A stretch of 32,000 nucleotides of DNA from an uncultured Muribaculaceae bacterium (GCA_964384115.1 CAYLJU010000005.1:18199-50198); one strand, 5' to 3'. Positions 5,667-28,228 are shown, numbered from the stretch's first letter. The notes: generated by a model from the letters alone, not told the origin. Made by a program: numbers and translations.

Positions 5667-6013
5667 GAAATTTTAAAAGAGGAAACGTATTTTTAGTTGA
5701 TTTAAAAGATGCGTATTCTCATGTTCAGTCAGGAAGACGACCTTGTTTGATTATTCAAAATAATTTAGGAAACACTTTTTCACCCAATTTAATTGTTGTG
5801 CCTTTAACTTCAAGAATAAAAAAACAAAATATGTCCGTTCATGTTATGACTGATGTTAATGAAATGGCATTATGTGAATGTATTTTAACTATTTCTAAAA
5901 AGCAAATCATTTATTATATTAAAACTTTAGATGAAAAAACTATGAAACTAATAGACAGAGCTTTATCCATATCGTTAGAAATTGAAAAGGAGGAAGAATT
6001 ATTAAAAAGTTAA
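5663..6013 (+). CDS. mazF: PemK/MazF-family type II toxin (endoribonuclease)
   Basis: RGNVFLVDL....HVQSGRRPCLIIQNNLGNTFSPNLIVVPLTSR matches the MazF/PemK signature (G.RP.l.lQnd.gN..sp.vIv.PiTs). Confidence 0.85.
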   Translation: MRNFKRGNVFLVDLKDAYSHVQSGRRPCLIIQNNLGNTFSPNLIVVPLTSRIKKQNMSVHVMTDVNEMALCECILTISKKQIIYYIKTLDEKTMKLIDRALSISLEIEKEEELLKS

Positions 6014-6018
6014 AGCAG

Positions 6019-6582
6019 ATGTATGAAGATTTGTGTAGTGGAAGTTCTGAGAATTATTGGCGTAGTGAAGGTAATAATAAGAGAATGAGAAGTTATCACA
6101 AATTATCTAAAATATTAAAAATAACCAAAAATATTTTACTTATAGGGTTAGCGATATATTGTGTTATTTTAGCAACAAATAGTATATTTTGTTTGTATGA
6201 TAAATTTATTTGTTGTAATACTGAAATTAGTATATTAAGTTTTATAGATTTTAGAAATTTTATTTTAGATATTTATATAGCAACTTTTATTATAGCTTTA
6301 TTTGTAGTTCTTTATTTCAGTAGAAAACAAAAGTATTCAATAAAACAAGTTATAAATGTTATTGTGAATAGTTTGTTATTTCTACCTGTTAGTAGTTTGT
6401 TAGTTTATAACTTTGTAGTATTAGAAAGTCTTATGAGTAGTTTTTATTTATTAGTAGTATTTGTAGTAGTGAATTTAATAATTAATCAATTAACTAATAG
6501 AATTGATAAATTATATGATGTAGCAGTAGGAAATATTGAAATGAATAGAAAAGGAGATAAGAAAGTATGCAAGGGAAAGTAA
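6019..6582 (+). CDS. membrane protein, unknown function
   Basis: Several long hydrophobic segments ([60 protein letters not shown]). Confidence 0.55.
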
Positions 6583-6800
6583 AATGGTTTAGTAGTGAGA
6601 AAGGATATGGATTTATATCTTGTGAAGGAGTATCAAATGATATTTATGTTCATTTTTCAGATATTCAAATGAGAGGTTTTAAATCATTAGAACAAAACGA
6701 TTTAGTTGAATTTGATTATGATGAAGAAATGCAAAAAGCAGTTAATGTAAGAAAAATAAATAATTCACTTGATTCAGATAATAATGTTGATAGTGAATAA
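6567..6800 (+). CDS. cold-shock domain protein (CspA family) with an acidic C-terminal tail
   Basis: [15 protein letters not shown] (RNP1-like) and VHFSDI (RNP2-like). The start overlaps the previous ORF by 16 nt. Confidence 0.85.
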
Positions 6801-6805
6801 CTAGA

Positions 6806-7261
6806 ATGACATTAGATAATACAGTATTAGAAGTAGATGTAGATAAAACAATAAAAAATGGTAAAAAAATTTATGAACAATATCAACCACTTGTTGAAAA
6901 AAGAATAAAACAGTTAAAGAAAAGTCAAATAAATTCTGCTAGTTTTATAGTTTTCTCAGGTGATAAAAATAGTAGAAATTCTAATGAAAAAAAGTTGATA
7001 GATGCACTTGCTTGGAATGATGATCAAATTGGTAGTTTTATAAAATTTGTATTAAATTTACAAAAAAGAGAAAAAGTAATTGGTGGTATTTTAAAGTGGA
7101 AATGTTTTTATGGGATGACTGATAAAGAAATTTCTGCTAAAATGAATATACCAGAAAGAACTATAAGATATAATAAATCTAAAGCATTTTATCAATTAGC
7201 TGTTTATTCAAATCAAGTTGAATTTATATATGAAAAAACTTATTATTTCTGTCTTGATTAA
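6806..7261 (+). CDS. sigma-70 region-4-like HTH protein (element-encoded sigma/transcription factor)
   Basis: C-terminal MTDKEISAKMNIPERTIRYNKSKAFYQLA resembles sigma region 4.2. Its size and context resemble the small sigma-like factors of ICEs and phages. Confidence 0.55.
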   Translation: MTLDNTVLEVDVDKTIKNGKKIYEQYQPLVEKRIKQLKKSQINSASFIVFSGDKNSRNSNEKKLIDALAWNDDQIGSFIKFVLNLQKREKVIGGILKWKCFYGMTDKEISAKMNIPERTIRYNKSKAFYQLAVYSNQVEFIYEKTYYFCLD

Positions 7262-7326
7262 ATAGAATTATTAGAAAATGTGGCATATTTAAGCCACATT
7301 GGATACATAGAAGTTGGAGGAGTATT

Positions 7327-8373
7327 ATGAAAAAGAAAATAGTATTAATAATTATAATTGTATTTATTGTATTCTTAGTAGGATTATATTTTCTAATATT
7401 TAAGAATACCGATAAAATTGTTTTAAATAAAGATGAGTTTGTTTTTGAACTCGGTGAAGATATTAGTGCAGATGTATCTTACTATCTAAAAGATGCTGAT
7501 TCTACTAAGAATATAAAAAGTTATAAGTTATCATCAGAAACATTAAAAATAGAAGGAAATAAATTTATTTTAGAAAATACTAATTATATTGAATTAGGTG
7601 AGTATAAAATAAATATTACATATAAAAAAATAAACAAAGAATTTTTTATAAAAGTTATTGATACTACTTCTCCAGAGTTTGAAGATTTTAAAGAAGTAAT
7701 TGAATTGGAAGAAACAACAGAAAATGTTGATTTAAAAAATTATTTTAAAGTTAAAGATCTAACAGAAACAAAAATTCAAATAGAAGGTGAGTATGATTTA
7801 ACAATACCAGGTGAATATAAAATAAATGTGATAGCTGTTGATTCAAGTAATAATGAAATTACAAAAGAATCAATAATTAAAGTGAAAGAAAAACCTGAGG
7901 AAACTTCTAAAGCAAATGATACAACAATAAACAAAACAGGAACACCAAAAGAAGAATCAAAATCATCTAATAGTACCCATTCTTCTAACAATACAACAAC
8001 AAACAAAACAGAAACTCCAGTTGTTGCATCACCAAGATATAGGAAAGATATTTCTGATGTTTATGTAGCGCAAGTGAACGCATATAGAAAAGCAAATGGT
8101 TTATCAGAATTACCAGTCACAACTGAAGCTCAAAATGAAGCTGATAGGAGAGCAAAAGAAATATCAACTTATTATTCTCATGATGGTGCAGGATATGGAT
8201 TTGGAGAAAATATAGGTGAGGGTTCAGTTGGAGTAGATTTTTTCACAGCATGGAAGAATAGCCCATCACATAATGCAGCAATGTTAAGAGAACAAAACAC
8301 AGCTATTGCTGCTAGTGTTTATGAAGTAAATAATCATTGGTATGCAGTAATATCTTTTAGAATGAATTATTAA
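7327..8373 (+). CDS. membrane-anchored/secreted CAP (SCP/PR-1, YkwD-like) domain protein
   Basis: N-terminal hydrophobic anchor, Ig-like repeats, a T/S/N-rich linker and a C-terminal CAP domain (NAYRKANGL..L, YSHDG, GENIG, WKNSPSHNAAML). Confidence 0.8.
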   Translation: MKKKIVLIIIIVFIVFLVGLYFLIFKNTDKIVLNKDEFVFELGEDISADVSYYLKDADSTKNIKSYKLSSETLKIEGNKFILENTNYIELGEYKINITYKKINKEFFIKVIDTTSPEFEDFKEVIELEETTENVDLKNYFKVKDLTETKIQIEGEYDLTIPGEYKINVIAVDSSNNEITKESIIKVKEKPEETSKANDTTINKTGTPKEESKSSNSTHSSNNTTTNKTETPVVASPRYRKDISDVYVAQVNAYRKANGLSELPVTTEAQNEADRRAKEISTYYSHDGAGYGFGENIGEGSVGVDFFTAWKNSPSHNAAMLREQNTAIAASVYEVNNHWYAVISFRMNY

Positions 8374-8413: not shown

Positions 8414-9067
8414 ATGATGGAAGAATTAATATTAAGACGATTAAAAATAACTAAAGAAGACTTAAATGAAAAGTATAAATTAATACAATATGATGAGTAC
8501 GTTGAGTTAATAAAAAAAATTTACAACAATATTTTAAATTTAGAAGTATTAGAAGAGTTGTTTAATAATGAATTAAATCTTAATTGTACAACAAATAATG
8601 AGTCAAATAAAATAGTTTTAATTCCTTCTAAATTACTTTTGATAATTGAAGGACAACAAGCTATTGATATAATAGAAAATTTTATAATTTACAATTATGA
8701 AGACAATAAACCTTTGTTTACTTGGGAAATTAAAAAGAGTTTATTATATGATGAAAAGCAAGAACAAATATTAGAAGAATTATATGAAACTAAAAATATA
8801 GAAGAGGTAAAAGAACCGTTTATAAAGCAAAACTATTTTATGTATAATGATGAAATTTATTTTCTATCTTCAGTTAGTTTATCTGCTTCAAATTTTGGAG
8901 AAAAGTATGAAATTATGATGTTTAAAAATAATATTAAACTAGCTAGTGATGAAATTGTTTATGAAGAACGTTTTTCATCTAAAGAAGAGTTATTAACCAC
9001 TTATAATGAGTTATTAAATAAGATAGTTAAGCAACCAGAAATTCTAAAAGATTATGTTGAACAGTAA
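8414..9067 (+). CDS. hypothetical protein
   Basis: 217-aa ORF with RBS AGGAGGA upstream. No motif recognised. Confidence 0.55.
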   Translation: MMEELILRRLKITKEDLNEKYKLIQYDEYVELIKKIYNNILNLEVLEELFNNELNLNCTTNNESNKIVLIPSKLLLIIEGQQAIDIIENFIIYNYEDNKPLFTWEIKKSLLYDEKQEQILEELYETKNIEEVKEPFIKQNYFMYNDEIYFLSSVSLSASNFGEKYEIMMFKNNIKLASDEIVYEERFSSKEELLTTYNELLNKIVKQPEILKDYVEQ

Positions 9068-9077
9068 AAAAAGATGA

Positions 9078-9344
9078 TCACTCATCTTTTTTATTTTCGT
9101 CATCCATAAGTTCTTCGTATCCGTCAAAAAATCTTCTAATGTCAAATTTGTATTTTTGTGCTAGAAAGAATAAGGTATCAAGTGAAATTCCAATATCATA
9201 GTTTGGACTTTCCACGTGCGAAATGAAACTTCTACTCATATCAGCATCCTCTGCCATTTTTTCTTGAGATTTACCAACGAATTCTTTTCTTATGGATTTC
9301 ATGTTTTTTCCTATTAGCGTGAAAAGTTCATAAGTGTCTTTCAT
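9078..9344 (-). CDS. XRE-family HTH regulator
   Basis: KSQEKMAEDADMSRSFISHVES is an HTH_3-like pattern. Confidence 0.7.
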   Translation of the reverse strand: MKDTYELFTLIGKNMKSIRKEFVGKSQEKMAEDADMSRSFISHVESPNYDIGISLDTLFFLAQKYKFDIRRFFDGYEELMDDENKKDE

Positions 9345-9486
9345 CTGCGAATACCTCCTAATACTATTTTATAGGAAATATCGTTTTAATACTGCGCCTT
9401 GATAAGGAGCAAAATAATTAATAAAAAATCAAAAAAGTATGTTATAATTTAATTAGCACGAAAAAAGAATACTTTTTAATGTATTC

Positions 9487-9750
9487 TTATCGTCTAGGAA
9501 TCCGACGATTTTCAACAAAATCTCGTTTTTCAAATAATTGAAATAACTCAACGTCAAGAACAGTTGCGATGTGACCGATATAGTCAATTCGTGTGTTTCT
9601 TTTAGCATTTTCAAGATTAGAAACGTATGTAGGTGTCGTTCCAAGTTTATCTGCGAAATCCTCTTGGGACCAACCATGTTCTAACCTGTAATACACAATA
9701 TTGTTAGCTAAAATCTCACGCGCATAAGGTTTTAGATTAATAGTCATCAC
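9487..9750 (-). CDS. XRE-family HTH regulator
   Basis: LEHGWSQEDFADKLGTTPTYVSNLENAKRN is a canonical HTH_3 pattern. Confidence 0.8.
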   Translation of the reverse strand: MMTINLKPYAREILANNIVYYRLEHGWSQEDFADKLGTTPTYVSNLENAKRNTRIDYIGHIATVLDVELFQLFEKRDFVENRRIPRR

Positions 9751-9910
9751 ATCCTTCCTTTCTTACTACTATTGTAATAAGTTTAGAGAAATCTAACCAT
9801 ACTAACTATGTAGTAAGTTATTAAATTATACTAGAAAGAAAAGCGATTATTTTGGAGAATTTTGTGCTAAAACTAAAAGGTAGATTAACAAATAAAAAAA
9901 GGAGCTAGAG

Positions 9911-10399
9911 ATGAAAAAAGAAAACTTAAATGAATATGTTAATAAAATGTCTGAAGTTTTAGACGAAAAATTTAAAATAATTACCTCAATAGAGTATCAT
10001 TATGATTTAGAAAAAATGATGTCTTTTATGGAAAAATTATCTAACGAAGAAGTTGAAACTGTATTAGAAAATTTGATTAATTCAAAATTAGAAGAAATTA
10101 AAAAATTAGGTGATGAAGATTTATTACAAAAAAATAATAAATTAGTAGATGAAGTCACTGAGTTCTTTTATGACAATGAAGAAGATGGTGTTAGTGGTGA
10201 AGAAGGCAGCTGTATTGCAACTGATCTTATTCTTAAAGTCTTCGGAAAAAATGGTCGTAAAATATCTCTTCCAATTAACATTGAATACATAAAAGACTAT
10301 TGTATTAGTAATGTAGTTGAGGAAAAAGATGTAAGAAAAACATTGATGTGGGTAGCTTTAGAGCTATCAACAGTAAGTTATTTTTTAAATAAAAAATAA
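9911..10399 (+). CDS. hypothetical acidic protein
   Basis: 162-aa ORF with RBS AGGAG upstream. No motif. Confidence 0.5.
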   Translation: MKKENLNEYVNKMSEVLDEKFKIITSIEYHYDLEKMMSFMEKLSNEEVETVLENLINSKLEEIKKLGDEDLLQKNNKLVDEVTEFFYDNEEDGVSGEEGSCIATDLILKVFGKNGRKISLPINIEYIKDYCISNVVEEKDVRKTLMWVALELSTVSYFLNKK

Positions 10400-10408
10400 T
10401 AACTTATG

Positions 10409-10440
10409 AAGTAGTAGTAGTAATTAGCAGTACCTATAAT
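10409..10440 (+). promoter_or_regulatory. AAGTAGTAGTAGTAA TTAGCAGTA cc TATAAT motif (promoter-like), copy 2, upstream of the DGR
   Basis: Same 15-mer plus TTAG(G)CAGTA as at 5066-5098. It ends in a consensus -10 TATAAT (10435-10440). Confidence 0.45.
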
Positions 10441-10522
10441 CTACCTTTTTAAGACACTTCTAATTTCTATGAAGTGTTTTATATTGAAGTAAAACGAGTT
10501 TTATATAGATAGGGGGAATATT

Positions 10523-11107
10523 ATGTTGCAAGTAAGTAGAAATAATAATTTAAAGATTCCCAAACAATTAGAAGATTGCAATGAATGTATTAATAGTAAT
10601 GAAGATAAAGTTGCTGTTAAACAAGCGTTGGCAACTGCACATGATGAAAAATTTAACAAAAAGAAAGTAATGCAATCTGTTGAGGAAGATAAAGAGTTGG
10701 AAAGAGTAAGTCAAATTCCTTCCAATGCTAACGATTTAATGGTAATAACAGTTGTAAAAAAATTAGGAGCATATATAATTGCAATTACAGAAAAGTCACC
10801 AGCTAAATATAGAGGTGTATTTGTTAATAGGATGCAGAATATGTGTTTAGATACTTTAGAAATCTTATTACAGGCAAATTTTGTTAGAATTGACTGTGAA
10901 GAGAGTAAGAGAAAAAGAGAAGAGTATCAAAAAGATGCTATTATCAAGTTAAAGATGTTAGGATACATTTCTATGGTTGCAGAGAATTCAGGTTGTATTT
11001 TAAAAAGACAATTCAAACAAATATCATTACAAATTGGAGAAGCAATTAATTTAGTAGCTGCTTGGAAGAAAAGTGATGATGATAGATGGAGGAAAAGAAC
11101 TAACTAA
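10523..11107 (+). CDS. avd: DGR accessory variability determinant (Avd, four-helix-bundle family) with an N-terminal extension
   Basis: The C-terminal ~120 aa fit the Avd pattern (KYRGVFVNRMQN..LDTLEILLQAN ... ISLQIGEAINLVAAWKKS) with a basic tail. It lies directly 5' of the TR and RT. Confidence 0.75.
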   Translation: MLQVSRNNNLKIPKQLEDCNECINSNEDKVAVKQALATAHDEKFNKKKVMQSVEEDKELERVSQIPSNANDLMVITVVKKLGAYIIAITEKSPAKYRGVFVNRMQNMCLDTLEILLQANFVRIDCEESKRKREEYQKDAIIKLKMLGYISMVAENSGCILKRQFKQISLQIGEAINLVAAWKKSDDDRWRKRTN

Positions 11108-11135
11108 TGGATTTTAAACCGAAAGGTTTTTAATT

Positions 11136-11485
11136 AAGTGGAAGATTTTATTCGTGGCTTGGTCATTTCAGTCGTCGGCTTAGATCGGTGACGGCGACGT
11201 CCGCGGCGTTAACAAAAATGGAAATAGAAACAACAACAACAGGTATAAACGTAATGGCGCCGTTCGCCCAGATTTGCTTTTGAAGAGATTAAATTATTAA
11301 TCTAAAAAACAGGTCAGAGAAATATATTTTAGGTAAAATATATCAGTATTTTAAAGCAAAGGGGTCTTCCACTTTTCTAATCGCTAAGAGAAATTAGTGC
11401 GATGGATAAATAAAAAGCACCCACACGAACAACGATAGGAATATCCTATTTTTGATAGTTATAAGGGGTGCTTTCTTTTATTTTG
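11136..11485 (+). ncRNA. DGR RNA (TR plus structured spacer); bounds approximate
   Basis: A non-coding stretch between avd and RT contains the TR and several hairpins. A 10-bp long-range pairing (11136-11145 with 11365-11374) brackets the TR. A 9-bp stem (11414-11422/11466-11474) plus U-tract lies just before the RT RBS. Confidence 0.6.
11186..11278 (+). repeat. DGR template repeat (TR)
   Basis: 93 nt align without gaps to 12830-12922 (offset 1644). All 10 mismatches are at TR adenines. A-rich AAC/AAT/AAA core between GC-rich flanks. Not within an ORF. Confidence 0.92.
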
Positions 11486-11501
11486 TAAGAGAGGAGCAAG
11501 A

Positions 11502-12521
11502 ATGAGATTAGAAGATATTTTTACTTTTGATAATTTATATAATGCACATAAAAAGTGTAGATGTTCTAAACAACAAAAAGGTGAAGTAATAAGGTTTGAA
11601 GTGAATCTTGCTGAAAACTTATACAAACTTAGAGAAGAAATAATAACAGGGAAATATAAAGTTGGCAAATATAAAGAATTTATAATTTATGAACCTAAAA
11701 AAAGATTGATAGAAGCATTACCATATAGAGATAGAGTATTACTTATGTGTTTCTGTGATAATTCTTTAATACCTAGATTAAATAAAAGGTTAATTAATGA
11801 TAATGTAGCTTGTAGAAAAGGTAAAGGAACACTATATGGAATGAACAGATTAGAATATTTTTTAAAAAAGGAATTTTTTAAAGGAAGAGATAATAACATT
11901 TATTATTTAAAATGTGATATAAGTAAATATTTTCCTAGCATAAATCACAAGATATTATTACAAAAATTAAAGAATATGGGTTTTTCCAAAGAAGAAATGT
12001 GGTTATTAGAAAAAATAATAAAAGAACAACCAAATAATGTAGATAAAGGATTACCATTGGGAAATCAAACAAGTCAATGGTTTGCATTATTATACCTGGA
12101 TAGAATTGACAGATTAATAAAAGAGGAATTGCAAATAAAAGGGTATGTGAGATATATGGATGATTTTATATTAATTCATAGAGATAAAAAATATTTGCAA
12201 TATTGTTTAAATAGAATAAACTTGGTATGTAATGAAGAATTAAAAATAGAACTAAATGCTAAAACACAAATTGGCAAAGTATATAATGGTATTGATTTTT
12301 TGGGATTTAGACACACTTTAACATCAACAGGTAAAGTTATTAGAAAGTTAAGATTATCTTCTAAAAAGAAGATTAGAAGGCATTTAAAGACATTACAAAA
12401 AATGAAAAACAAGGGTATTGTAGATGACAAATATGTTCAAATGAGAAAAAATGCTTTTTATAATCATGTATCTAATTCTGATGAAAATTATTTTAAGATG
12501 CGCCTTAAAGAGGAGCAATGA
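11502..12521 (+). CDS. DGR-type reverse transcriptase
   Basis: 339 aa. PKKRLIEALPYRDRVL, YYLKCDISKYFPSINH, the DGR hallmark LGNQTSQ (12057-12077), and the catalytic YMDD (12153-12164). The size and the adjacent TR fit a DGR RT, not a retron or group II intron RT. Confidence 0.95.
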   Translation: MRLEDIFTFDNLYNAHKKCRCSKQQKGEVIRFEVNLAENLYKLREEIITGKYKVGKYKEFIIYEPKKRLIEALPYRDRVLLMCFCDNSLIPRLNKRLINDNVACRKGKGTLYGMNRLEYFLKKEFFKGRDNNIYYLKCDISKYFPSINHKILLQKLKNMGFSKEEMWLLEKIIKEQPNNVDKGLPLGNQTSQWFALLYLDRIDRLIKEELQIKGYVRYMDDFILIHRDKKYLQYCLNRINLVCNEELKIELNAKTQIGKVYNGIDFLGFRHTLTSTGKVIRKLRLSSKKKIRRHLKTLQKMKNKGIVDDKYVQMRKNAFYNHVSNSDENYFKMRLKEEQ

Positions 12522-12608
12522 TGTAAAAAAATAAAATATTTGTAGAAAAAGTGTTAAATCTAAAGAAAAAACGCCTAAAATATGGTAAAATAATTATGGT
12601 GATGAAAG

Positions 12609-14531
12609 ATGTTTACTAATGAACAATTAACTTTACTAACTGAAGGTCAAGTATGGGGAAATGACCGTGAAAATCAGTTAGAAGTATTAAAAAAATATGG
12701 AACTAGGTCAGCAATAAGTGACTTAGTAGTATTAACAGGAGGATATTGTGAAGATTCTTGTACATATATGGCTCCTGATGATGATACGTTAAAAGGTAGA
12801 GTAGGATGGGCTTATACTCAATCTTCAGACGGTGACGGCGACGTCCGCGGCGTTAACGAAGATGGATATAGTCACTACAACTACAGGTATGGACGTAATG
12901 GCGCCGTTCGCCCAGCTTTGCTATCATCTTCTGTATTCTCTCAAATCTCCCCGAACAGAGTGAGGGGATACAACGGAACTGAAGAAGTTGAATATGGAGA
13001 GTATCCTCAATATGCTCCAGATGGAAGTACACAAAGAAGATTAGAAAGCGAATATCAAAATAGAAGATTACAAACAACTGGAAGAAATTATACTTTTGAT
13101 AGCACTCCATACGATAGATATTCTCAAGGTTTTCAAGCTGTGACTTATGATGAATATGAGTATAGTGGAAAAAAATACATTCGTGTAAAAGCAAATTCTG
13201 ATTACGGTGGAGATAGATTCAAATTATCAAATGGCGAACAATATAGAGATGGTGATTATGTTTGGGTAGAAGTATCACCAGTTAAATGGTTGATAGACGA
13301 TAGAACTAAAACTCTTGTTTCAAAAATAGGACTATTAGCTGGAATAAGATTCCATACAGATCAAAGAAGATATAATGGTGACTTTTCAACAACTGATATG
13401 AAAGAATATCTTGATAGATATATGTCAAAAGATTTGTTTCAAACAGCAACTTTGACAAGAACAGTTGATATGACACCAGAAGAAAAAAAGAAATTTGAAG
13501 AAGACCAAAGAATTGAAGAAAAAAGAAGAAATCCATACGGATTCAATTTTGGACAAGTAAGCGAAGAACAAATAATAAGAGGTGCAATTGAAAGTGGTGT
13601 TGCAGTATTCTTACATGGACAATCATCTGAAGGTAAGAGTGCTAGAGTAAAACAAATTGACCCTGATTGTGTAATAATATATCTTCGTAATGCTACACCA
13701 GAAAGTTTAAATGGTAAGAGCGTATATAATTCTGAAACAGGTGAAATGATTGATGTAAAACCAACTTGGTTGAAGAAATTAGAAGAAAGATGTGAAAAAG
13801 ATCCAGATAAATATCATATAGTTTTCTTGGATGAAATAACTAACGCATTACCTAGTATTCAAGGTATAGCATTTAATATAGTATTAGATAGAGAAGTTAA
13901 TGGAATATGGCAATTACCTGAAAATGCAAGAATAGTTGCAGCAGGTAATGATATGAAAGATTCACTTGCAGCAAATCAATTAGCAGAACCTTTATTTAAT
14001 AGATTTGCTCATGTTTATATTCAAACAACAGTAGAAAGTTGGCTACAATGGGCAAGTGAACATAATATTCATCCAGCAATATATGCTTATATAGCTTATA
14101 AGAAGGGTGAATCATTAAGAAGTAAATATGATGGTGAAAAACCAAATGCAGACCCAAGAAAATGGGAAATGGCATCTAAAATGTTATATGCGACAGGACA
14201 ACCTGAAATGTTAAGAGCATTAGTAGGTGAAGATATAACTAGAGAGTTCTGTCAATTCTGTAATCAAAGAGTTGTGACATTAGAAGATGTTTTAAGTGGA
14301 AATTATACAGAAAGAGATTTACAAATGAATACCTCTGAAAGATATGCGACTACTATTGGATTATCCCAAGTTAGTGAAGCAGATTTTGGTAAAGTAAGAG
14401 AGTTTGTTTCTGGTCTAGGACAAGAATTCTGTGCAGTATTTGATTCACTATGGACACATGGTGATGAAGCAAGAATGGAAGTTGTAGCAGAAGCAAGACT
14501 TGCAAGTACTAAAGGAGGTAGAAGAGTATAA
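12609..14531 (+). CDS. DGR target protein: N-terminal variable ligand-binding domain fused to a MoxR/AAA_5-like ATPase
   Basis: The VR encodes residues ~74-105 (DGDGDVRGVNEDGYSHYNYRYGRNGAVRPALL). Walker A GQSSEGKS (13617-13640), Walker B VFLDE (13821-13835), and the downstream ...AAGND...LFNRF pattern typical of AAA_5. Confidence 0.9.
   Translation: MFTNEQLTLLTEGQVWGNDRENQLEVLKKYGTRSAISDLVVLTGGYCEDSCTYMAPDDDTLKGRVGWAYTQSSDGDGDVRGVNEDGYSHYNYRYGRNGAVRPALLSSSVFSQISPNRVRGYNGTEEVEYGEYPQYAPDGSTQRRLESEYQNRRLQTTGRNYTFDSTPYDRYSQGFQAVTYDEYEYSGKKYIRVKANSDYGGDRFKLSNGEQYRDGDYVWVEVSPVKWLIDDRTKTLVSKIGLLAGIRFHTDQRRYNGDFSTTDMKEYLDRYMSKDLFQTATLTRTVDMTPEEKKKFEEDQRIEEKRRNPYGFNFGQVSEEQIIRGAIESGVAVFLHGQSSEGKSARVKQIDPDCVIIYLRNATPESLNGKSVYNSETGEMIDVKPTWLKKLEERCEKDPDKYHIVFLDEITNALPSIQGIAFNIVLDREVNGIWQLPENARIVAAGNDMKDSLAANQLAEPLFNRFAHVYIQTTVESWLQWASEHNIHPAIYAYIAYKKGESLRSKYDGEKPNADPRKWEMASKMLYATGQPEMLRALVGEDITREFCQFCNQRVVTLEDVLSGNYTERDLQMNTSERYATTIGLSQVSEADFGKVREFVSGLGQEFCAVFDSLWTHGDEARMEVVAEARLASTKGGRRV
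12830..12922 (+). repeat. DGR variable repeat (VR)
   Basis: Counterpart of the TR. The 10 A-to-N differences fall in 9 codons and are all nonsynonymous (K>E, N>D, N>Y, R>S, N>H, N>Y, N>Y, K>G, D>A). Confidence 0.92.
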
Positions 14532-14932
14532 TGAACGAAGCTAAAAGAGAATTGTTAATGGGTTATATTAGAAGTAATGTAGCTCCAATATTAATAGATT
14601 TTGTGGATGGTATAAATATTCCAAATAGTGTTATATTACCAGCAAATTGTAAAATGGAAGATTTAACTGGACATTACATAGAAACTGATTATGTACCACC
14701 AAAATGGATGAATCAAATATTTACAACAAATGCACCAACTATATTGGTTATTGATAAAATTGATAGTATTCCAAAAGATGAACAAACAAAGTTTGTAGAG
14801 ATATTAGAATATAGAAAAGTATCTACGTTTGAACTTCCAAAAAACACAGTAATTATAGTGACTGCAAAAGAAATAAATGAAGGAACAATTAATGAAGAAA
14901 TATATTCATTAGTTGCACATATAAAAGGATAG
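14531..14932 (+). CDS. small protein resembling the Walker-B-to-sensor half of an AAA_5 module (no P-loop)
   Basis: The start overlaps the upstream stop (TAATG). PTILVIDKIDSIPKDEQTKFVEILEYRKVSTFELPKNTVIIVTAKE parallels HIVFLDEITNALPSIQGIAFNIVLDREVNGIWQLPENARIVAAGN in the upstream ATPase. No GK[ST] motif. Confidence 0.6.
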   Translation: MNEAKRELLMGYIRSNVAPILIDFVDGINIPNSVILPANCKMEDLTGHYIETDYVPPKWMNQIFTTNAPTILVIDKIDSIPKDEQTKFVEILEYRKVSTFELPKNTVIIVTAKEINEGTINEEIYSLVAHIKG

Positions 14933-14935
14933 TTT

Positions 14936-16573
14936 ATGGGCTTTGATATAGAATCAATTAAAAGGAAAATGCTTGTAAAATATCCTTTTTTTGGAAGCGT
15001 AGTAGCTAATGTAGATTATAAGGCAAATAAAAGTGTACCAACAGCAGGAACAGACGGTAAAGTAATACATTATAATCCAGATTTCTTAGCAAATTTAAGT
15101 GTTGAAGAGCAAACTTTTATATTTGCTCATGAAGTGTGCCACATTGCCTTTAATCATATTTTGAGAAGTGAAGGAAAAGATCCTGCTATTTGGAATACGG
15201 CAACAGATGCTGTTATTAATGCTTTTTTAAAACGTGATGGTTTGAAAATGGTTGAAGGTGGAGTAGATATGGCAGATGCTATTAACTATGATGCTGAACA
15301 ATTATATGAAAAATTATTACAAGAAAAACAACAACAACAGCAACAACAAGGACAAGGAAATCAATCTCAACAGCAAAATGGACAACAAGGTCAACAAGGA
15401 CAGTCACAACAAAATCAAAGTGGTCAAGGTAGCTCTGGAGAGCAAAACCAACAAGAGCAATCACAAGATTCACAATCTCAATCTCAAAATGGTCAAGAAC
15501 AATCACAAAATTCTGAAAGTCAAAGTGGTCAAGAAGATAGTTCAGGTAGTGGAAGTTCATCTGGCTCTGATGGCGAAGAACAAGAAAAACAACAAAGTGG
15601 TAGTCAAAGTGGTGGAGGTTCTTCATCAGATTCTGATTCACAAGAAAAGAAGAATGATAGTTCTTCAGGAAGTGGAGATTCATCTTCGCAAGAAGAAAAA
15701 CAAGACGTTGGACATGATACACATAGTATGTGGGAAGATGCAATAAAAAAACATAAAGAAGAACAAGCAAAAAAAGATAAAAAAGAAAGTTTATTAGATA
15801 AATTATTTAATAGAGATAAACAAGAAAAAACACCAAAACAAAGCGAAATTGAAAAGAAACAAGAAGAAATTGAACAACTAGGAGAAAAAGAAGCGTTTAA
15901 GAAAAATTTAGAGGAAAAGAAAAAAGAACTTGAAGAATTAAAAAAAGCATTGTCGCAACAAGCTATGGGTCCAGGTTCTTCAACAAATAGAGATGTTAGA
16001 AATATAACAGATATAGGAAGAGCAAAACCATTAATAGATTGGCGTTATGTATTAAGAGAAGCAATAAAATATGATGTTGATTGGTCATATAGAAATGCAA
16101 CGATTGAAGATGGTGTAATAAGTGCAAATTTAGAAGAACAACCGATGCCAGAAACTGAGATTGTATTAGATACAAGTGGTTCAATTAATGAAACACTATT
16201 AAAAAATTTCTTGAGAGAATGTAAAAATATATTACAACATTCAAGATTAAAGGTAGGATGTTTTGATACAGAGTTTTATGGATTTCACGAAATAAGAACA
16301 GAAGAAGATATTGAAAATATGAGATTTGAAGGTGGAGGAGGAACTGACTTTGATGTAGCAGTTGGTGCTTTCTCAAGAAGGGTAGAAAATAAGATAATCT
16401 TTACAGATGGTGATGCTTATATGCCTGAAATGCCACTTGATGCAATTTGGATAGTATTTGGTGGAATTGAAATAAATCCAAAAGGTGGAAAAGTAATACA
16501 AATTGATGATGAGCAACTTGATAGGTTATATTCATACGAAATGGATACTCAATCAAAAGGTAGATCAAGATAG
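14936..16573 (+). CDS. metallopeptidase-like (HExxH) / vWA-like two-domain protein (DUF2201-type partner of MoxR-like ATPases)
   Basis: HEVCH at 15128-15142, a Q/S/G/E-rich low-complexity linker (about 15320-15705), a K/E-rich coiled coil, and a C-terminal vWA with MIDAS DTSGS (16169-16183), GGGTDF and FTDGD. Confidence 0.85.
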   Translation: MGFDIESIKRKMLVKYPFFGSVVANVDYKANKSVPTAGTDGKVIHYNPDFLANLSVEEQTFIFAHEVCHIAFNHILRSEGKDPAIWNTATDAVINAFLKRDGLKMVEGGVDMADAINYDAEQLYEKLLQEKQQQQQQQGQGNQSQQQNGQQGQQGQSQQNQSGQGSSGEQNQQEQSQDSQSQSQNGQEQSQNSESQSGQEDSSGSGSSSGSDGEEQEKQQSGSQSGGGSSSDSDSQEKKNDSSSGSGDSSSQEEKQDVGHDTHSMWEDAIKKHKEEQAKKDKKESLLDKLFNRDKQEKTPKQSEIEKKQEEIEQLGEKEAFKKNLEEKKKELEELKKALSQQAMGPGSSTNRDVRNITDIGRAKPLIDWRYVLREAIKYDVDWSYRNATIEDGVISANLEEQPMPETEIVLDTSGSINETLLKNFLRECKNILQHSRLKVGCFDTEFYGFHEIRTEEDIENMRFEGGGGTDFDVAVGAFSRRVENKIIFTDGDAYMPEMPLDAIWIVFGGIEINPKGGKVIQIDDEQLDRLYSYEMDTQSKGRSR

Positions 16574-16584
16574 ATAAAAAGAGG

Positions 16585-16612
16585 TTTAGAAATAGATTCT
16601 AAATCTTTTTTT
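16585..16612 (+). terminator. rho-independent terminator ending the DGR-target operon
   Basis: Stem tttagaa/ttctaaa with loop ataga, then tc and a T7 run. Confidence 0.55.
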
Positions 16613-16708
16613 GATGCAAATTAGATAAAACAAGGTAGAAATGGCTTTGTTATTAGGAAAATAAAGGATTTTTATGTTATAATTAATATATAATGAGATG
16701 GTGATTTT

Positions 16709-16936
16709 ATGGTTGTAGAAGAGTTGAAGAAAAAGTTTGAAACTGAAAAAGAAGTAAAATTTAAATTATATAGTTTGGAATATATAATTCAAGAAGAAGA
16801 TAGCAAAGTAATTATATATCCGTTGTTATATAGTTCAAAAAAGAATGTTTATAATTCATTTGATGAAGTTTTATATAACTATACGATTTACAATGAAAGT
16901 ATTATTGATAATTTAGATAGATTAATAATACTTTGA
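16709..16936 (+). CDS. small hypothetical protein
   Basis: 75-aa ORF. No motif. Confidence 0.4.
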   Translation: MVVEELKKKFETEKEVKFKLYSLEYIIQEEDSKVIIYPLLYSSKKNVYNSFDEVLYNYTIYNESIIDNLDRLIIL

Positions 16937-16945
16937 GGAGGACGT

Positions 16946-17503
16946 ATGAATAAATTAGTAAATACAGATTCAACCATAAATTTAGAATATGTGAAAATAG
17001 ATAAAGATAATTTTGAAATTGGGTACAACATTCAAAAACAGATTTGGGAAGATGAACCAGATTACGAAAATTTCAAAAGCAAAGCAAATAGCAATGATGC
17101 TGATAATATGTCTTGGTTAGTTTTTTATAACAATATGCCTATTGGTATTACTGGAGTTTTTACTGAAGACTTTGATGGAGAAACAATATGGTTAGATTGG
17201 TACGGAATATTACCTGAATATAGAAAACAAGGATTAGGTAAAAAAATATTATTAGATACAATTGAATATTGTAAGAAATTAGATAAATATGAGTATTTGA
17301 GATTAGATACAACATATTGGGGTGGAAGACCTGCAATTTCTTTGTATGATAGTGTTATGACATTTAAAGAAAAGTATGTTGCTGAAGATACAGAAGTTTC
17401 TCACAATTGGTGGATTTATACATATAGTTTGAAAGGTAAAAAAGAATACTGGAACAATAGAATTATTGGATTAAGTGATTATTATAATAACTTAAAAGAT
17501 TAG
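16946..17503 (+). CDS. GNAT-family N-acetyltransferase
   Basis: Acetyl-CoA-binding motif A: YGILPEYRKQGLGKKIL. Confidence 0.8.
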   Translation: MNKLVNTDSTINLEYVKIDKDNFEIGYNIQKQIWEDEPDYENFKSKANSNDADNMSWLVFYNNMPIGITGVFTEDFDGETIWLDWYGILPEYRKQGLGKKILLDTIEYCKKLDKYEYLRLDTTYWGGRPAISLYDSVMTFKEKYVAEDTEVSHNWWIYTYSLKGKKEYWNNRIIGLSDYYNNLKD

Positions 17504-24736: not shown

Positions 24737-24831
24737 GCGTCCAAAATCTCTATTTTTGCTTGAAAAGAAAGGGGATGATAGCAATTTAAAATCTTTTTTA
24801 TTAGTAGTACCAATGATTGAAAGGAGAACGT

Positions 24832-27800
24832 ATGAAGAAAAAAATTGGTAGGAAGTTAAAAAAAGTTTTAAACGTAGTAATGGTAGTAGGAATTTTAATG
24901 TCATCTTTTCCAATTACTCCATTTATACCTAAAGTAAATGCTTTAGCTAGTGTATCAGGAGATAAGATAATTGAAACAGCTATGACTTATCAAGATTGGG
25001 GATATTGGGAAGTTGGTACTTGTACAGGATTAGTCACTCGTACATTAAATAAGTTAGGAATAGGGCAATCTGTTGTAGGTATTCATCCTTACGATATAGA
25101 TAAACCTCAACCAGAGGGTACAGGTGCAAGGTATGCTCCAGATAAAATGTATCAAAATGCTTTAAATCATCCAGAAGATGCACAATACATTTGGTCAGGA
25201 TATGTTAAAGATGTAAAAGCAAATGCTCATTTATTTGAGAATGGAGATTTAGTTTTACAACGTCCAGAAGATAAAGCAAATTATAATGGTAGTGGACACG
25301 CAGCATTAATTCATATATATAATGGGAATATATCTATGTATGGTGCTAATGGTGAAAAGATGGGTATTGGTGATGCAGTAATGGCAACAGGTATTGCCAC
25401 AAGAGGTATTTCATTTAATGTAAATTCAATGGATTATATTCATGTATTTAGATTAACTAAAGCAGAACCAGAATACGCAACAACAACATCAGAAAAATCT
25501 GCACAAGAAGTTGTAGATGTATCATTCTATAAAACTGATCTTGAAACAGGTAAACCTTTATCTGGAGTGGAAGTAGAATTTTATCGTGACGATGTTAAGT
25601 TTGCGACAGGGATAACTGGAGAAGATGGGTATGCTAAAGTCACTTCAACAACAACTTATACATCTTCATCATCACCAAAAACTTATGTCACTAACTGGGA
25701 TGATTTAGGTGAAGAAGAGCAAGCTGAAGTAGATGAAAGAGGTGCTTATCATAATTTAGTGGAAGCACAAGCTGCTGCTGATTCTGAAGCATTAAAGAGT
25801 GCGACTGAAAAAGCATCACAAACTCATAAGTATAGTGTAGTAGAAGTAAAAACTAAAACTAAATATTGGTTAAATCCAGATAATACTACTGATAGTGATT
25901 CTGCAACAGGTAGTGGAAGTATAAGTCTATCTTTATCAAATGAAAGAGTGACAGCTACGGCAATTTTGTTTAAGGAAGATGCCGACGTAGGTTATGCACA
26001 AAATGAAGCTGAAATTGATGGCGCTTTGTATGGATTATACGCTAATGAAAATATTTTAGATCCAGCAGACGGTTCTATTATATATAATAAAGATGAAGAA
26101 ATAACTAGAGTTCGTATAGAAAATGGACAAGCACAGGTTGATGGGCTTTACTTAGGTAGCTATTACTGGCTTGAATTGACTAGTGGAACTGGATATAAAC
26201 TTAATAAGAATAAAGAGGTGTTTACTGTAAATTATTCATCTCAAAATGTAAAAGTAGTGACTTCTAAATCTGTATCAAAAGAAGAAGTAATTACAGCAGA
26301 TTTTGAAATAGAAAAAATTATTACTTCTGGTGATGAATCAGAAATCGTACAAAAAGAAGAGGGAGCAGAATTCATTGTTGTTGCTAAAAAGTATGTTGAT
26401 AAGTATGGTGATATAGAAACTGCTTGGGAACACAGAGATGAATTTACTGACAAAGAGTATGATAAATTAGTCACTAATAAAAATGGTTATGACAAGTCAA
26501 AACAATTGGCTTATGGAAGTTATGTTGGAAAACAAATCAAAGGTAAAATGGATACAGAATTAGTAGAAAACACATTCACTTTTACCGTATCAAAAGAAAA
26601 CCAAGATACAATTAAATATATTATTAACAATCGTCTATTTACTTCTTATGTTAAACTTCAAAAAGTAGATTCAGAAACAGGTAAATTAATCACAGCATCT
26701 AACACAACATTTAAAATTAAAAATGCTGATACTGGTGAATATTTAACTCAAAAAGTTGCTGATACTACTTATGATACTTGGAAGACATCTGATAAAGGAA
26801 TGATTCAATTACCACTAGAAGTAAAAGCTGGAAATTGGATACTTGAAGAAGTAGAAAGTCCTGATAATTATTTAATCAATAAAGAAGGTGTAAGTTTCAA
26901 AGTCACTAACACTAACATTATTGAAACAGATTCTGATGGTGACCCTCTATTAACAGTTGTGATGGAAGATAAAGCTGTAAAAGGTCAAATCAAGGTAGAA
27001 AAATCTGGAGAAGTATTAGTAGGTGTAGAAAAAGATGAAAATGGTAATATTCAATTTATTTATGAAGAAAGACCATTAGCAGATATGGTTGTTTATGTTC
27101 AAGCAGATGAAGATATATTAGATCCTGCTGATAATTCAGTTATCTATAAAAAAGGAGAAGTAGTAGATGTTATTACAACATCTTATACAGGTGAAGGTGT
27201 ATCAAAACTATTACCACTTGGAAATTATATAGTGTATGAATACCAAAGTCCAAATGGAATGTTAATTGATACAACTCAATATAAAGTGTCTTTAGATTTT
27301 ATAGATAATGAAACAGAAGTTGTTATGGAAACTATTTCAATAACAAATGAACGTCAAAAGGTAGAAATAGATTTAACTAAATTAGATTTAGATACTGATA
27401 CAGCACTTGAAGGTGTTGTTTTTGGTTTATATGCAAAAAAGGATATATATGCTCAATATCGTCCAGCTATGGAAAGAAGTTTATATAGACCTGTATTAGT
27501 TGAAGAGGGAACTTTAATTGAAACTGTTGTATCAGATGAAAATGGTAAAGTTCATTTTTCTGCTGATTTACCTATTTCTTTTGATGATGAAACTTATTTT
27601 GAAATTCGCGAATTAAAATCAAAAGAAGGGTATTATGAGAGTAGCGAAATTTTTTCAATAGATACAAAGTACAAAGGACAAAATATTGAAAAAATATCTA
27701 ATAGTCAAACAATCTATAACGAAATAATAAAAAATTATATTTTAGTTAATAAAGTTGACTCATTAACATTAGAAAATATAATTAGTAAAGACTTTAAATT

Positions 27801-28203
27801 TTCAGTATGTAGTGATGCTGAATGTAAAGATGTTATTGCAGAATATAACGCAGATGTAGAAACAGGAACAGCTTTGATTGATATAATATATGGAACAACT
27901 GTATTTATAAAAGAAAGCTCTGCACCTGAAGGATACTTATTAAGTCCAGAAGTAGTAAAAGTAAGTTTAAATTCTGAAGGGCTTTTTGTTAATGATGAAC
28001 TTGTAGAAACAGATGAAGATTTATTATATAGCATTATTTATCAAAATACTTTATTACCAGTAATTCAAGAAGAAGTAGAAGAAGGAGTACAGACTGGTTA
28101 TGATAATAATATGCCTGTATATATCGCTATTAGTGGATTATCATTAGCTGGTGTAATAGCAATAACAATCTCATTATGCAAGAAGAAAAAAAGAAGAAAA
28201 TAA
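24832..28203 (+). CDS. large cell-surface protein: signal peptide, CHAP/NlpC-P60-like Cys-His domain, multiple Cna-B/SpaA-type (prealbumin-fold) domains, C-terminal sorting signal
   Basis: ATG at 24832 after AAAGGAG. GTCTGLV...GSGHAALI. Repeated G.Y.L.E...P.GY modules (YYWLELTSGTGY, WILEEVESPDNY, YIVYEYQSPNGM, FEIRELKSKEGY, VFIKESSAPEGY). VQTG (28087-28098) plus a hydrophobic helix plus KKKKRRK. Confidence 0.85.
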   Translation: MKKKIGRKLKKVLNVVMVVGILMSSFPITPFIPKVNALASVSGDKIIETAMTYQDWGYWEVGTCTGLVTRTLNKLGIGQSVVGIHPYDIDKPQPEGTGARYAPDKMYQNALNHPEDAQYIWSGYVKDVKANAHLFENGDLVLQRPEDKANYNGSGHAALIHIYNGNISMYGANGEKMGIGDAVMATGIATRGISFNVNSMDYIHVFRLTKAEPEYATTTSEKSAQEVVDVSFYKTDLETGKPLSGVEVEFYRDDVKFATGITGEDGYAKVTSTTTYTSSSSPKTYVTNWDDLGEEEQAEVDERGAYHNLVEAQAAADSEALKSATEKASQTHKYSVVEVKTKTKYWLNPDNTTDSDSATGSGSISLSLSNERVTATAILFKEDADVGYAQNEAEIDGALYGLYANENILDPADGSIIYNKDEEITRVRIENGQAQVDGLYLGSYYWLELTSGTGYKLNKNKEVFTVNYSSQNVKVVTSKSVSKEEVITADFEIEKIITSGDESEIVQKEEGAEFIVVAKKYVDKYGDIETAWEHRDEFTDKEYDKLVTNKNGYDKSKQLAYGSYVGKQIKGKMDTELVENTFTFTVSKENQDTIKYIINNRLFTSYVKLQKVDSETGKLITASNTTFKIKNADTGEYLTQKVADTTYDTWKTSDKGMIQLPLEVKAGNWILEEVESPDNYLINKEGVSFKVTNTNIIETDSDGDPLLTVVMEDKAVKGQIKVEKSGEVLVGVEKDENGNIQFIYEERPLADMVVYVQADEDILDPADNSVIYKKGEVVDVITTSYTGEGVSKLLPLGNYIVYEYQSPNGMLIDTTQYKVSLDFIDNETEVVMETISITNERQKVEIDLTKLDLDTDTALEGVVFGLYAKKDIYAQYRPAMERSLYRPVLVEEGTLIETVVSDENGKVHFSADLPISFDDETYFEIRELKSKEGYYESSEIFSIDTKYKGQNIEKISNSQTIYNEIIKNYILVNKVDSLTLENIISKDFKFSVCSDAECKDVIAEYNADVETGTALIDIIYGTTVFIKESSAPEGYLLSPEVVKVSLNSEGLFVNDELVETDEDLLYSIIYQNTLLPVIQEEVEEGVQTGYDNNMPVYIAISGLSLAGVIAITISLCKKKKRRK

Positions 28204-28228
28204 TTCTATTTATTGAAAGGAGCAAACT

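Follow-up and report, generated by a model that had tools for sequence, protein, structure and literature searches.

The locus described here raises the question of what an apparent diversity-generating retroelement (DGR) could be diversifying when its repeats, its reverse transcriptase (RT) and its target gene all lie among ordinary chromosomal genes. The DNA is a stretch of 32,000 nt from an uncultured Muribaculaceae bacterium (GCA_964384115.1 CAYLJU010000005.1:18199-50198), which is termed the window below, and all positions are counted from its first nucleotide. A sequence-only reading had proposed that a template repeat (TR) and a variable repeat (VR) flank a DGR-type RT within it. We conclude that this is very probably a chromosomal, non-phage DGR with the order avd - TR - RT - target, which diversifies the N-terminal domain of a MoxR-like ATPase. 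Its component parts are the following.

10523-11107, + strand: Avd-like accessory protein, 194 amino acids (aa), with an N-terminal extension of ~60 aa; matches phrog_3206, 'Avd protein of DGR' (1.6e-13)
11108-11501, + strand: non-coding DGR RNA region, made up of a 5' hairpin, the TR and a structured spacer of ~220 nt (RNAalifold, 8 loci)
11186-11278, + strand: TR (93 nt), aligned gaplessly to 12830-12922; each of the 10 mismatches is at an A
11502-12521, + strand: DGR-type RT, 339 aa, with LGNQTSQ at residue 186 and YMDD at residue 218
12609-14531, + strand: target gene, 640 aa; residues 1 to ~290 a DUF6273-related domain, residues ~320-611 a MoxR-like AAA+ ATPase
12830-12922, + strand: VR, codons 74-105 of the target, with adenine-pattern differences within 12858-12892

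Base-by-base comparison of 11186-11278 with 12830-12922 gives a gapless alignment of 93 nt, with the homology ending exactly at 11186 and 11278. There are ten mismatches, located at TR positions 11214, 11217, 11223, 11228, 11229, 11232, 11238, 11247, 11248 and 11272, and every coordinate of the alignment that had been read by eye is confirmed. At all ten the TR has A, and the VR has G, T or C. The TR is composed of 31 A, 24 G, 22 C and 16 T; 10 of the 31 adenines are changed against 0 of the 62 other bases, as had been claimed, and the probability of all ten mismatches falling on A is p = 5.5e-6 (Fisher). Neither a non-A mismatch nor an indel, which the sequence-only reading had named as evidence against a DGR, is present in the alignment. 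The same repeat pair was recovered independently by a repeat finder (family D2), and scanning the window with a degenerate TR pattern in which A is replaced by N gives two matches, the TR and the VR, where none is expected by chance. Within the window there is thus one TR and one VR only. The TR sits between the Avd-like open reading frame (ORF) and the RT and is non-coding, while the VR is internal to the coding sequence of ORF 12609-14531; the ORF positions agree with the original assignment of both. The ten changes in the VR affect nine codons (84, 85, 87, 88, 89, 90, 92, 95 and 103) and are all nonsynonymous, again as stated at the outset.

The same adenine-only rule is followed in fifteen related loci. 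Relatives of the target number thousands in metagenomes, of which the 120 best are full-length proteins with 75-96% identity, and a further sample comprises 76 species-level genome loci (L017-L092). Related loci come nearly all from uncultured gut Bacilli or 'Tenericutes', with Clostridium sp. CAG:417, Coprobacillus sp. CAG:605 and Candidatus Faecisoma as examples of hosts. In each locus with avd and RT the TR occupies the equivalent position and the VR the equivalent codons. When 16 distinct TR/VR pairs are pooled, 148/391 adenines are changed compared with 20/761 other bases (Fisher 1e-56), and 10 of those 20 non-A differences are an indel artefact in a single locus.

Comparison of close relatives shows recent turnover of the VR. 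Loci L001-L008 and L017-L019 have an identical TR and six different VRs. Outside the VR, 3,238 nt are the same in L002 and L006; the 102-nt VR has 14 differences between them, 12 of these lying opposite TR adenines. L001 and L018 have one difference outside the VR and 12 inside. These two comparisons reveal recent mutagenic homing in a sister lineage. In L093, which has the closest relative of the window's target (protein 96% identical), divergence is 17% in the VR compared with 3.9% elsewhere, corresponding to a 4.4-fold greater density. The most variable columns among the 120 homologues are residues 83, 84, 89, 90, 91, 95 and 97, which are precisely the AAC, AAA and AAT codons of the TR. In species without a DGR, too, variability within the domain is greatest at the columns equivalent to the VR, with an entropy ratio of 2.0 that may be compared with 3.6 in the DGR-bearing species.

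One of the ten mismatches, that at 11272, stands apart. It lies in the 3' end of the repeats, which resembles the initiation of mutagenic homing (IMH) sequence of a DGR and its TR counterpart (IMH*).

11256-11278, + strand: IMH*-like end of the TR, GC-rich GGCGCCGTTCGCCCAG followed by ATTTGCT; no A-to-N variation beyond this point
12900-12922, + strand: IMH-like end of the VR, GGCGCCGTTCGCCCAG followed by CTTTGCT; codes for the conserved NGAVRPAL strand

Just after the GC-rich GGCGCCGTTCGCCCAG the TR has GAT where the VR has GCT. In 15 of the 16 TR/VR pairs an A of the TR faces a C of the VR at the equivalent position, and residue 103, encoded there, is a conserved alanine among homologues (entropy 0.19); the neighbouring R101 and P102 are invariant across the domain family. 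Because the difference is fixed in nearly all the pairs and residue 103 is conserved, the mismatch at 11272 is a fixed IMH/IMH* difference between donor and recipient rather than a product of mutagenesis. Such a fixed difference marks donor and recipient in DGRs (PMC5758913). The number of mutagenized adenines in the window is therefore nine (11214-11248), so that of the ten adenine-mutagenized sites proposed earlier all are indeed at A, but one is to be set aside. The adenine statistic without 11272 is still 1.6e-5. With the VR lying inside the reading frame, its IMH has also to serve as coding sequence.

The RT has an RVT_1 domain and matches phrog_1423 (1.8e-102). Its best match among PDB sequences is the 328-aa chain 8ub7_A (2.4e-39), in which the bRT-type IGSLTSQ is aligned opposite LGNQTSQ of the window; a group II maturase scores 4.4e-10 and retron RTs ~4e-5. 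In a tblastn search of annotated phages it is 33% identical to brt of Bordetella phage BPP-1 (2e-37), and the other matches are RT genes of Faecalibacterium, crAss-like and Bacteroides phages. These comparisons support membership of the DGR lineage, closest to the Bordetella phage bRT. Generic models also match, with the NCBIfam scores all far below their cut-offs: group II (2.8e-24; 86 bits, cut-off 300), Drt3a (1.6e-18; 67 bits, cut-off 200), retron (4.6e-13; 49 bits, cut-off 235) and Drt5, together with several PADLOC models of the DRT class. The DGR-specific motif reported previously is thus in place in an enzyme whose best matches are DGR RTs, and the profile searches do not place it among retron, group II or abortive infection (Abi) enzymes. 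The Avd-like gene reported upstream of the TR is likewise borne out by its match to the PHROG family of DGR Avd proteins.

The 394 nt between avd and the RT gene are conserved far past the TR. An alignment of eight diverged loci folded by RNAalifold gives 82 base pairs, of which 27 have compensatory double changes. Paired combinations occupy 96.9% of the alignment cells, compared with 38-51% after sliding the partners by 1-3 columns, and covariation at the observed level was reached by 0 of 500 column shuffles. The predicted structure begins with a hairpin at 11110-11135, and continues with the following elements.

11136-11148, + strand: 5' arm of a 13-bp long-range helix that brackets the TR, paired with 11362-11374 (13 pairs, 6 double-changed, 98% paired)
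11273-11285, + strand: TR 3' tail and first bases of the spacer, paired with 11349-11360 (12 pairs, 2 compensatory, 97% paired)
11286-11473, + strand: spacer hairpins 11286-11303, 11322-11343 and 11376-11406 and terminal stem 11415-11473, followed by a U-run
11362-11374, + strand: 3' arm of the TR-bracketing helix, partner of 11136-11148

In helix 10, one of the spacer helices 7-10, seven of the eight base pairs have compensatory changes. All of the covarying helices are kept in the window. The folded spacer predicted here fits the published model, in which RT-Avd is recruited by a structured spacer that also primes cDNA synthesis where it joins the 3' end of the TR (PMC12875486). An Rfam scan of the whole window found no family at the gathering threshold, the group II intron and retron msr/msd families being included in the search.

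What, then, is the target? Residues 321-611 match the ATPase family phrog_1297 (2.6e-48), and tblastn finds phage genes annotated as MoxR-like or AAA ATPases. Walker A (GQSSEGKS) is at residue 337 and Walker B (IVFLDE) at 404. The match to Pfam AAA_5 is weak (0.0035), and a Pfam search with the whole protein gave no match. The protein has no signal peptide and no hydrophobic or membrane segment. It is predicted to be a soluble cytoplasmic protein, with a variable loop near its N-terminus fused to a MoxR-like AAA+ ATPase.

Residues 1 to ~290 belong to a family with 1,629 representatives at 50% identity, for which there is no Pfam model; most are stand-alone proteins of 280-370 residues. The two stand-alone paralogues that were examined (L096 and L097) have an ordinary chromosomal context, with no DGR or ATPase nearby. 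Matches to DUF6273 are found in 9 of 97 relatives. In one of these, P0366, residues 3-98 align with positions 83-168 of the model (PF19789) with a score of 28.1 bits against a gathering cut-off of 23.5, and the matching stretch is that which holds the VR. The N-terminal domain is therefore probably related to DUF6273, distantly and partially. A structure of residues 1-300 predicted by AlphaFold2 (AF2) has a predicted local distance difference test score (pLDDT) of 93 and a predicted TM-score (pTM) of 0.89, and places the VR in a beta-hairpin with strands 79-82 and 88-91. A model of residues 1-118, chosen as the possible core of a C-type lectin (CLec) fold, was poor (pLDDT 52). The best Foldseek match of the longer model in BFVD is a DUF6273 protein, with E = 0.12, and a profile search of PDB sequences with the N-terminal domain found nothing. 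The TR would permit ~1e15 protein variants over codons 76-97.

Downstream of the target there are two further genes that together with it form a conserved three-gene module, and upstream of avd there are three genes that accompany the cassette in some of its relatives.

9078-9344, - strand: HTH_19 regulator (Pfam HTH_19, 4.1e-8), accompanying the DGR cassette in a subset of relatives
9487-9750, - strand: HTH_3 (Cro/C1-type) regulator (Pfam HTH_3, 2.5e-13), accompanying the cassette in the same subset as the HTH_19 regulator
9911-10399, + strand: 162-aa ORF upstream of avd, an optional companion of the cassette
14531-14932, + strand: 133-aa ORF, in every case between the ATPase and DUF2201 genes, found by tblastn in most related loci and typically 45-69% identical
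14936-16573, + strand: DUF2201_N metallopeptidase (HEVCH), Q/S/G-rich linker and DUF2201 VWA-like domain (DTSGS); Pfam 3e-34 and 2e-14

The DUF2201 protein has 545 residues, with Pfam matches to DUF2201_N (3e-34) and DUF2201 (2e-14), and is kept beside the target in nearly all loci. Its DTSGS resembles a metal-ion-dependent adhesion site (MIDAS) motif, as read from the sequence. The linker between the peptidase and VWA domains contains imperfect direct repeats at 15300-15700 (repeat families D1, D3, D4 and D7). The 133-aa ORF has no match in Pfam, PHROGs, NCBIfam or PADLOC. Across the 76 species-level loci, conservation of the three-gene module holds wherever the contig extends far enough. Full avd and RT genes lie upstream in 11 of the 76, and four more have an RT at the contig limit or truncated; five have RT remnants of 48-107 residues, and ~55 have no RT within 6 kb. 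Because the module is conserved while few of the loci bear avd and RT, the DGR would seem either to be an add-on to a pre-existing ATPase/VWA module or to have been lost from it many times.

Intermediate states are seen in several loci. In the metagenome locus L016 the RT (8902-9911) is split into ORFs of 132 and 184 aa, with TR and VR still differing almost only at adenines. This looks like a recently inactivated DGR, and it is on an element with ParA/ParB, CHAP and serine recombinases. In L027, L031, L032, L051 and L063 the target is immediately preceded by an RT remnant (48-107 aa) and there is no avd gene; these remnants are traces of DGR decay. L094 and L095, whose targets are 89% identical to that of the window, have the module of ATPase and small ORF with no RT upstream, where there is instead an ORF of 387 or 540 aa with no family on record; the DGR is thus absent even among close relatives of the window. 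Exact duplications of the target gene including the VR, 1.76-1.80 kb in length, are present in L043 (6001-7757 = 9637-11393) and L073 (4028-5829 = 5990-7791), and are either very recent tandem duplications or artefacts of assembly.

The two regulators with helix-turn-helix (HTH) domains adjoin avd and RT in L001, L006-8, L017, L018, L024, L044 and L092. The 162-aa ORF is 65-69% identical in 11 DGR-bearing loci, and is missing from L016, L043, L053 and L065 where avd and RT are present; it has no match in Pfam, PHROGs or PADLOC. The two regulators and the ORF therefore go with avd and RT in many of the DGR-bearing relatives and not in all, those four loci being the exceptions. They may serve in regulation or be optional accessories of the cassette.

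A number of observations weigh against the reading of this locus as a DGR diversifying the N-terminal domain of the ATPase, and should be set out together. There is no inverted repeat on the 3' side of the IMH, where DNA folding of 12905-12985 gave z = -0.17 and a terminator scan was empty. Such a repeat raises homing in Bordetella, although a GC-rich inverted repeat at this position is not essential and is found in only 34% of DGRs (PMC5758913). The Avd-like ORF matches Pfam bAvd (0.0019) and NCBIfam DivGenRetAVD (3.2e-5) only below the curated cut-offs, and for this reason we describe it as a divergent Avd with an N-terminal extension. The target of the window itself has no match to DUF6273 (PF19789) at E <= 0.01, Foldseek gave nothing for its N-domain model in PDB or BFVD at E <= 1e-3, and no structural match in these two databases supports a C-type lectin fold for the VR-bearing domain. 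In the majority of species the ATPase module has no DGR. No PADLOC model matches the target, the 133-aa ORF, the DUF2201 protein or the 162-aa ORF, which bears on any proposed function. Lastly, an exact-protein look-up found the target of the window on no other record, and scans of genome and metagenome contig collections with the degenerate (A-to-N) TR gave no match.

Despite these points the identification of TR, VR, RT and Avd as the parts of a DGR is supported by the adenine bias, the kinship of the RT, the Avd match, the covarying RNA and the relatives. Since its parts are intact and there has been recent VR turnover in the sister lineage, we infer that current activity of the DGR in the window is plausible. 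The alternative that survives best is that this is a real DGR that has become a fossil in this genome, so that the A-to-N differences record past homing. This is in keeping with the patchy distribution, where ~15 of the 76 species-level loci have a full or contig-limited RT and five have only remnants, and with the split RT of L016. Moreover, 19 contigs of a single study all carry one and the same VR sequence (P0065), and neither the protein look-up nor the TR-pattern scans found a second copy of the target or TR/VR of the window. However, the RT is a full ORF of 339 aa retaining both YMDD and LGNQTSQ, the Avd is full length and every covarying RNA helix is intact. The non-A positions of TR and VR are identical over 93 nt, whereas a decaying pair would gather non-A differences, of which there are seven in L043. 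Turnover in the cassettes of the sister lineage is also very recent. We consider that a fossil is unlikely.

A second alternative is a phage-borne cassette for switching tropism like that of BPP-1, with a receptor-binding protein as target. The nearest RTs in the annotated phage collection are those of gut phages, the ATPase and DUF2201 families have PHROG members, and DUF6273, which is a published DGR target domain, has been described in phage receptor-binding proteins with N-terminal VRs (PMC10743442). Yet no phage structural genes were found in the window. The cassette lies between a cluster of replication and HTH genes on one side and metabolic and surface-protein genes on the other, with tRNA synthetases, a nucleoside hydrolase, an acetyltransferase and sortase-type surface proteins in the flanks. 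A near-identity DNA search with 9800-17000 gave no match in 50,697 phage records or 72,556 plasmids. In L001-L008 the cassette is found among housekeeping genes, between a DNA methylase and a LysR regulator. The target, moreover, is a soluble AAA+ ATPase without tail-fibre features. A phage tropism cassette is thus very improbable, and is rejected on the absence of phage genes in the window and of a phage DNA match, and on the nature of the target. That the repeats arose by chance, or are an ordinary duplicated segment beside an unrelated RT (retron, group II intron, Abi or defence-associated RT (DRT)), has a negligible probability and is rejected, since the generic group II, Drt3a, retron and DRT models that also match the enzyme are outweighed by DGR RTs as its best matches, by the adenine-only pattern both in the window and in the pooled loci, and by covariation in the RNA flanking a TR in a window that no Rfam group II or retron family matches.

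If the locus is a working DGR, then a mechanism may be outlined. The avd-TR-spacer-RT transcript would fold such that the long-range helix brackets the TR and the TR 3' tail is paired with the spacer. By extrapolation from the Bordetella model (PMC12875486, PMC5758913), a complex of RT and Avd would bind the folded spacer and prime at the TR 3' junction. Reverse transcription of the TR would copy C, G and U faithfully, with misincorporation opposite A, and the A-mutagenized cDNA would replace the VR at 12830-12922 in the target gene. The GC-rich IMH at 12900-12922 would set the 3' limit, with the fixed A/C difference marking the TR as donor and the VR as recipient. In this way ~13 codons encoding a surface beta-hairpin and loops (residues 83-97) could be re-randomized, with ~1e15 variants possible.

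The likely nature of the target provides a basis on which to consider function. A MoxR-type motor generally works together with a VWA partner, the two acting on one specific client, and in the remodelling pairs CbbQ-CbbO, NorQ-NorD and RavA-ViaA a MoxR/AAA_5 motor has an adjacent VWA/MIDAS partner. To our knowledge none of these three pairs has a hypervariable recognition domain or a DGR, and their clients are fixed. The ATPase of the window differs from them in that it bears a DGR-diversified domain. Since DGR-diversified sensors have been proposed in MoxR/vWA conflict systems (PMC7159879, PMC10907252), we tentatively suggest that the variable domain might act as a selector of ligand or substrate, passing bound and possibly foreign proteins to the AAA+ motor and the VWA-metallopeptidase; we would not put this at even chances. 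It is a little more doubtful whether a AAA+ motor with ~1e15 variants and a VWA-zinc-peptidase could constitute a programmable system to capture and remodel or cleave the proteins of phages, plasmids or other foreign elements, and this is offered as speculation by analogy.

Those conflict systems, the VMAP ternary systems of cyanobacteria and purple sulfur bacteria, resemble the window in combining a DGR, a MoxR-like ATPase and a vWA protein, and their diversified domain has been proposed to be a cytoplasmic sensor of invaders (PMC7159879, PMC10907252). The differences are considerable. Their VR is in a C-terminal CLec/FGE domain, located on the vWA protein or on a separate target, and MoxR is a separate gene; in the window it is the ATPase itself that bears the variable domain, as an N-terminal fusion, and the vWA protein carries a DUF2201_N zinc peptidase. 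Their hosts are multicellular bacteria, whereas those of the window type are small-genome gut Bacilli. No VMAP, TIR, caspase or trypsin effector was found among the Pfam, PHROG, NCBIfam and PADLOC matches of the window module, in a comparison that included no VMAP profile. With its variable domain borne by the ATPase instead of the vWA protein, and with neither a VMAP nor a known effector among those matches, the module is not a member of the VMAP ternary class as defined, and the resemblance is in logic only.

The DGR of BPP-1 (avd-TR-brt, target mtd) and that of the window both have an error-prone RT with an I/LGxxxSQ motif, the two enzymes being 33% identical, an avd gene that immediately precedes a non-coding TR, a structured spacer separating TR and RT, adenine-specific differences, and a GC-rich IMH with an IMH/IMH* difference. 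However, the target is downstream of the RT in the window and upstream of avd in BPP-1; the VR takes up codons 74-105 of 640, close to the N-terminus, in the former and is C-terminal in the latter. The window has no stem-loop after the IMH, and is chromosomal where BPP-1 is a phage. Finally, the target is a cytoplasmic ATPase in one and the tip of a tail fibre in the other.

The phage 'tentaclin' targets, which have an N-terminal DUF6273 (PMC10743442), resemble the window in that their VR lies early in the target gene, near its 5' end. By sequence, the VR segment of the window family is related to DUF6273, and the VR is modelled as a beta-hairpin with flanking loops. In the phage proteins the domain is followed by the Ig/Fn3 domains of a receptor-binding protein, in contrast to a beta-rich region and a AAA+ ATPase in the window, and the window protein itself misses the DUF6273 model. 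A dynein/Midasin-related AAA+ motif is also found in class UVR4 of the DGR targets of the candidate phyla radiation (CPR; PMC5758913); these differ in host phylum and VR class, and are set beside the window by description rather than by sequence.

According to surveys of DGR targets, VRs are mostly C-terminal and belong to surface or virion proteins (PMC5758913, PMC8144416). N-terminal VRs are rare (3/372), and AAA-type motifs in the targets were noted only for the CPR class (PMC5758913). ATPase targets are not mentioned in a large metagenome survey of DGRs, and a literature search found no paper linking a DGR with DUF2201. The machinery itself is ordinary, as DGRs are well known and abundant in the gut; what is unusual is the architecture of the target and the gene order avd-TR-RT-target, in a group of gut Bacilli that has been little studied.

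Dozens of related species have the module, some together with a DGR and others lacking one, and this provides a natural comparison for what hypervariation adds to a AAA+/VWA machine, and the compact cassette, with an RNA supported by covariation, is a tractable non-phage Bacilli DGR for reconstitution. If the suggested role is correct, 'hypermutated antigen sensors' would extend beyond multicellular bacteria to gut commensals that are unicellular, in a different wiring where sensor and ATPase are one protein, and there would be a first function for the widespread, uncharacterized ATPase-DUF2201 pair.

Two further features of the window may be recorded. At 183-1421 and 1577-2860 there are tandem seryl-tRNA synthetase paralogues, both matching phrog_16140, of which the first has tRNA-synt_2b and Seryl_tRNA_N domains. 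At 24817-31795 there are two surface proteins of >1,100 aa, one with four SpaA domains and the other with twelve Listeria-Bacteroides repeats; SpaA proteins are located downstream of the cassette in L001-L006 as well.

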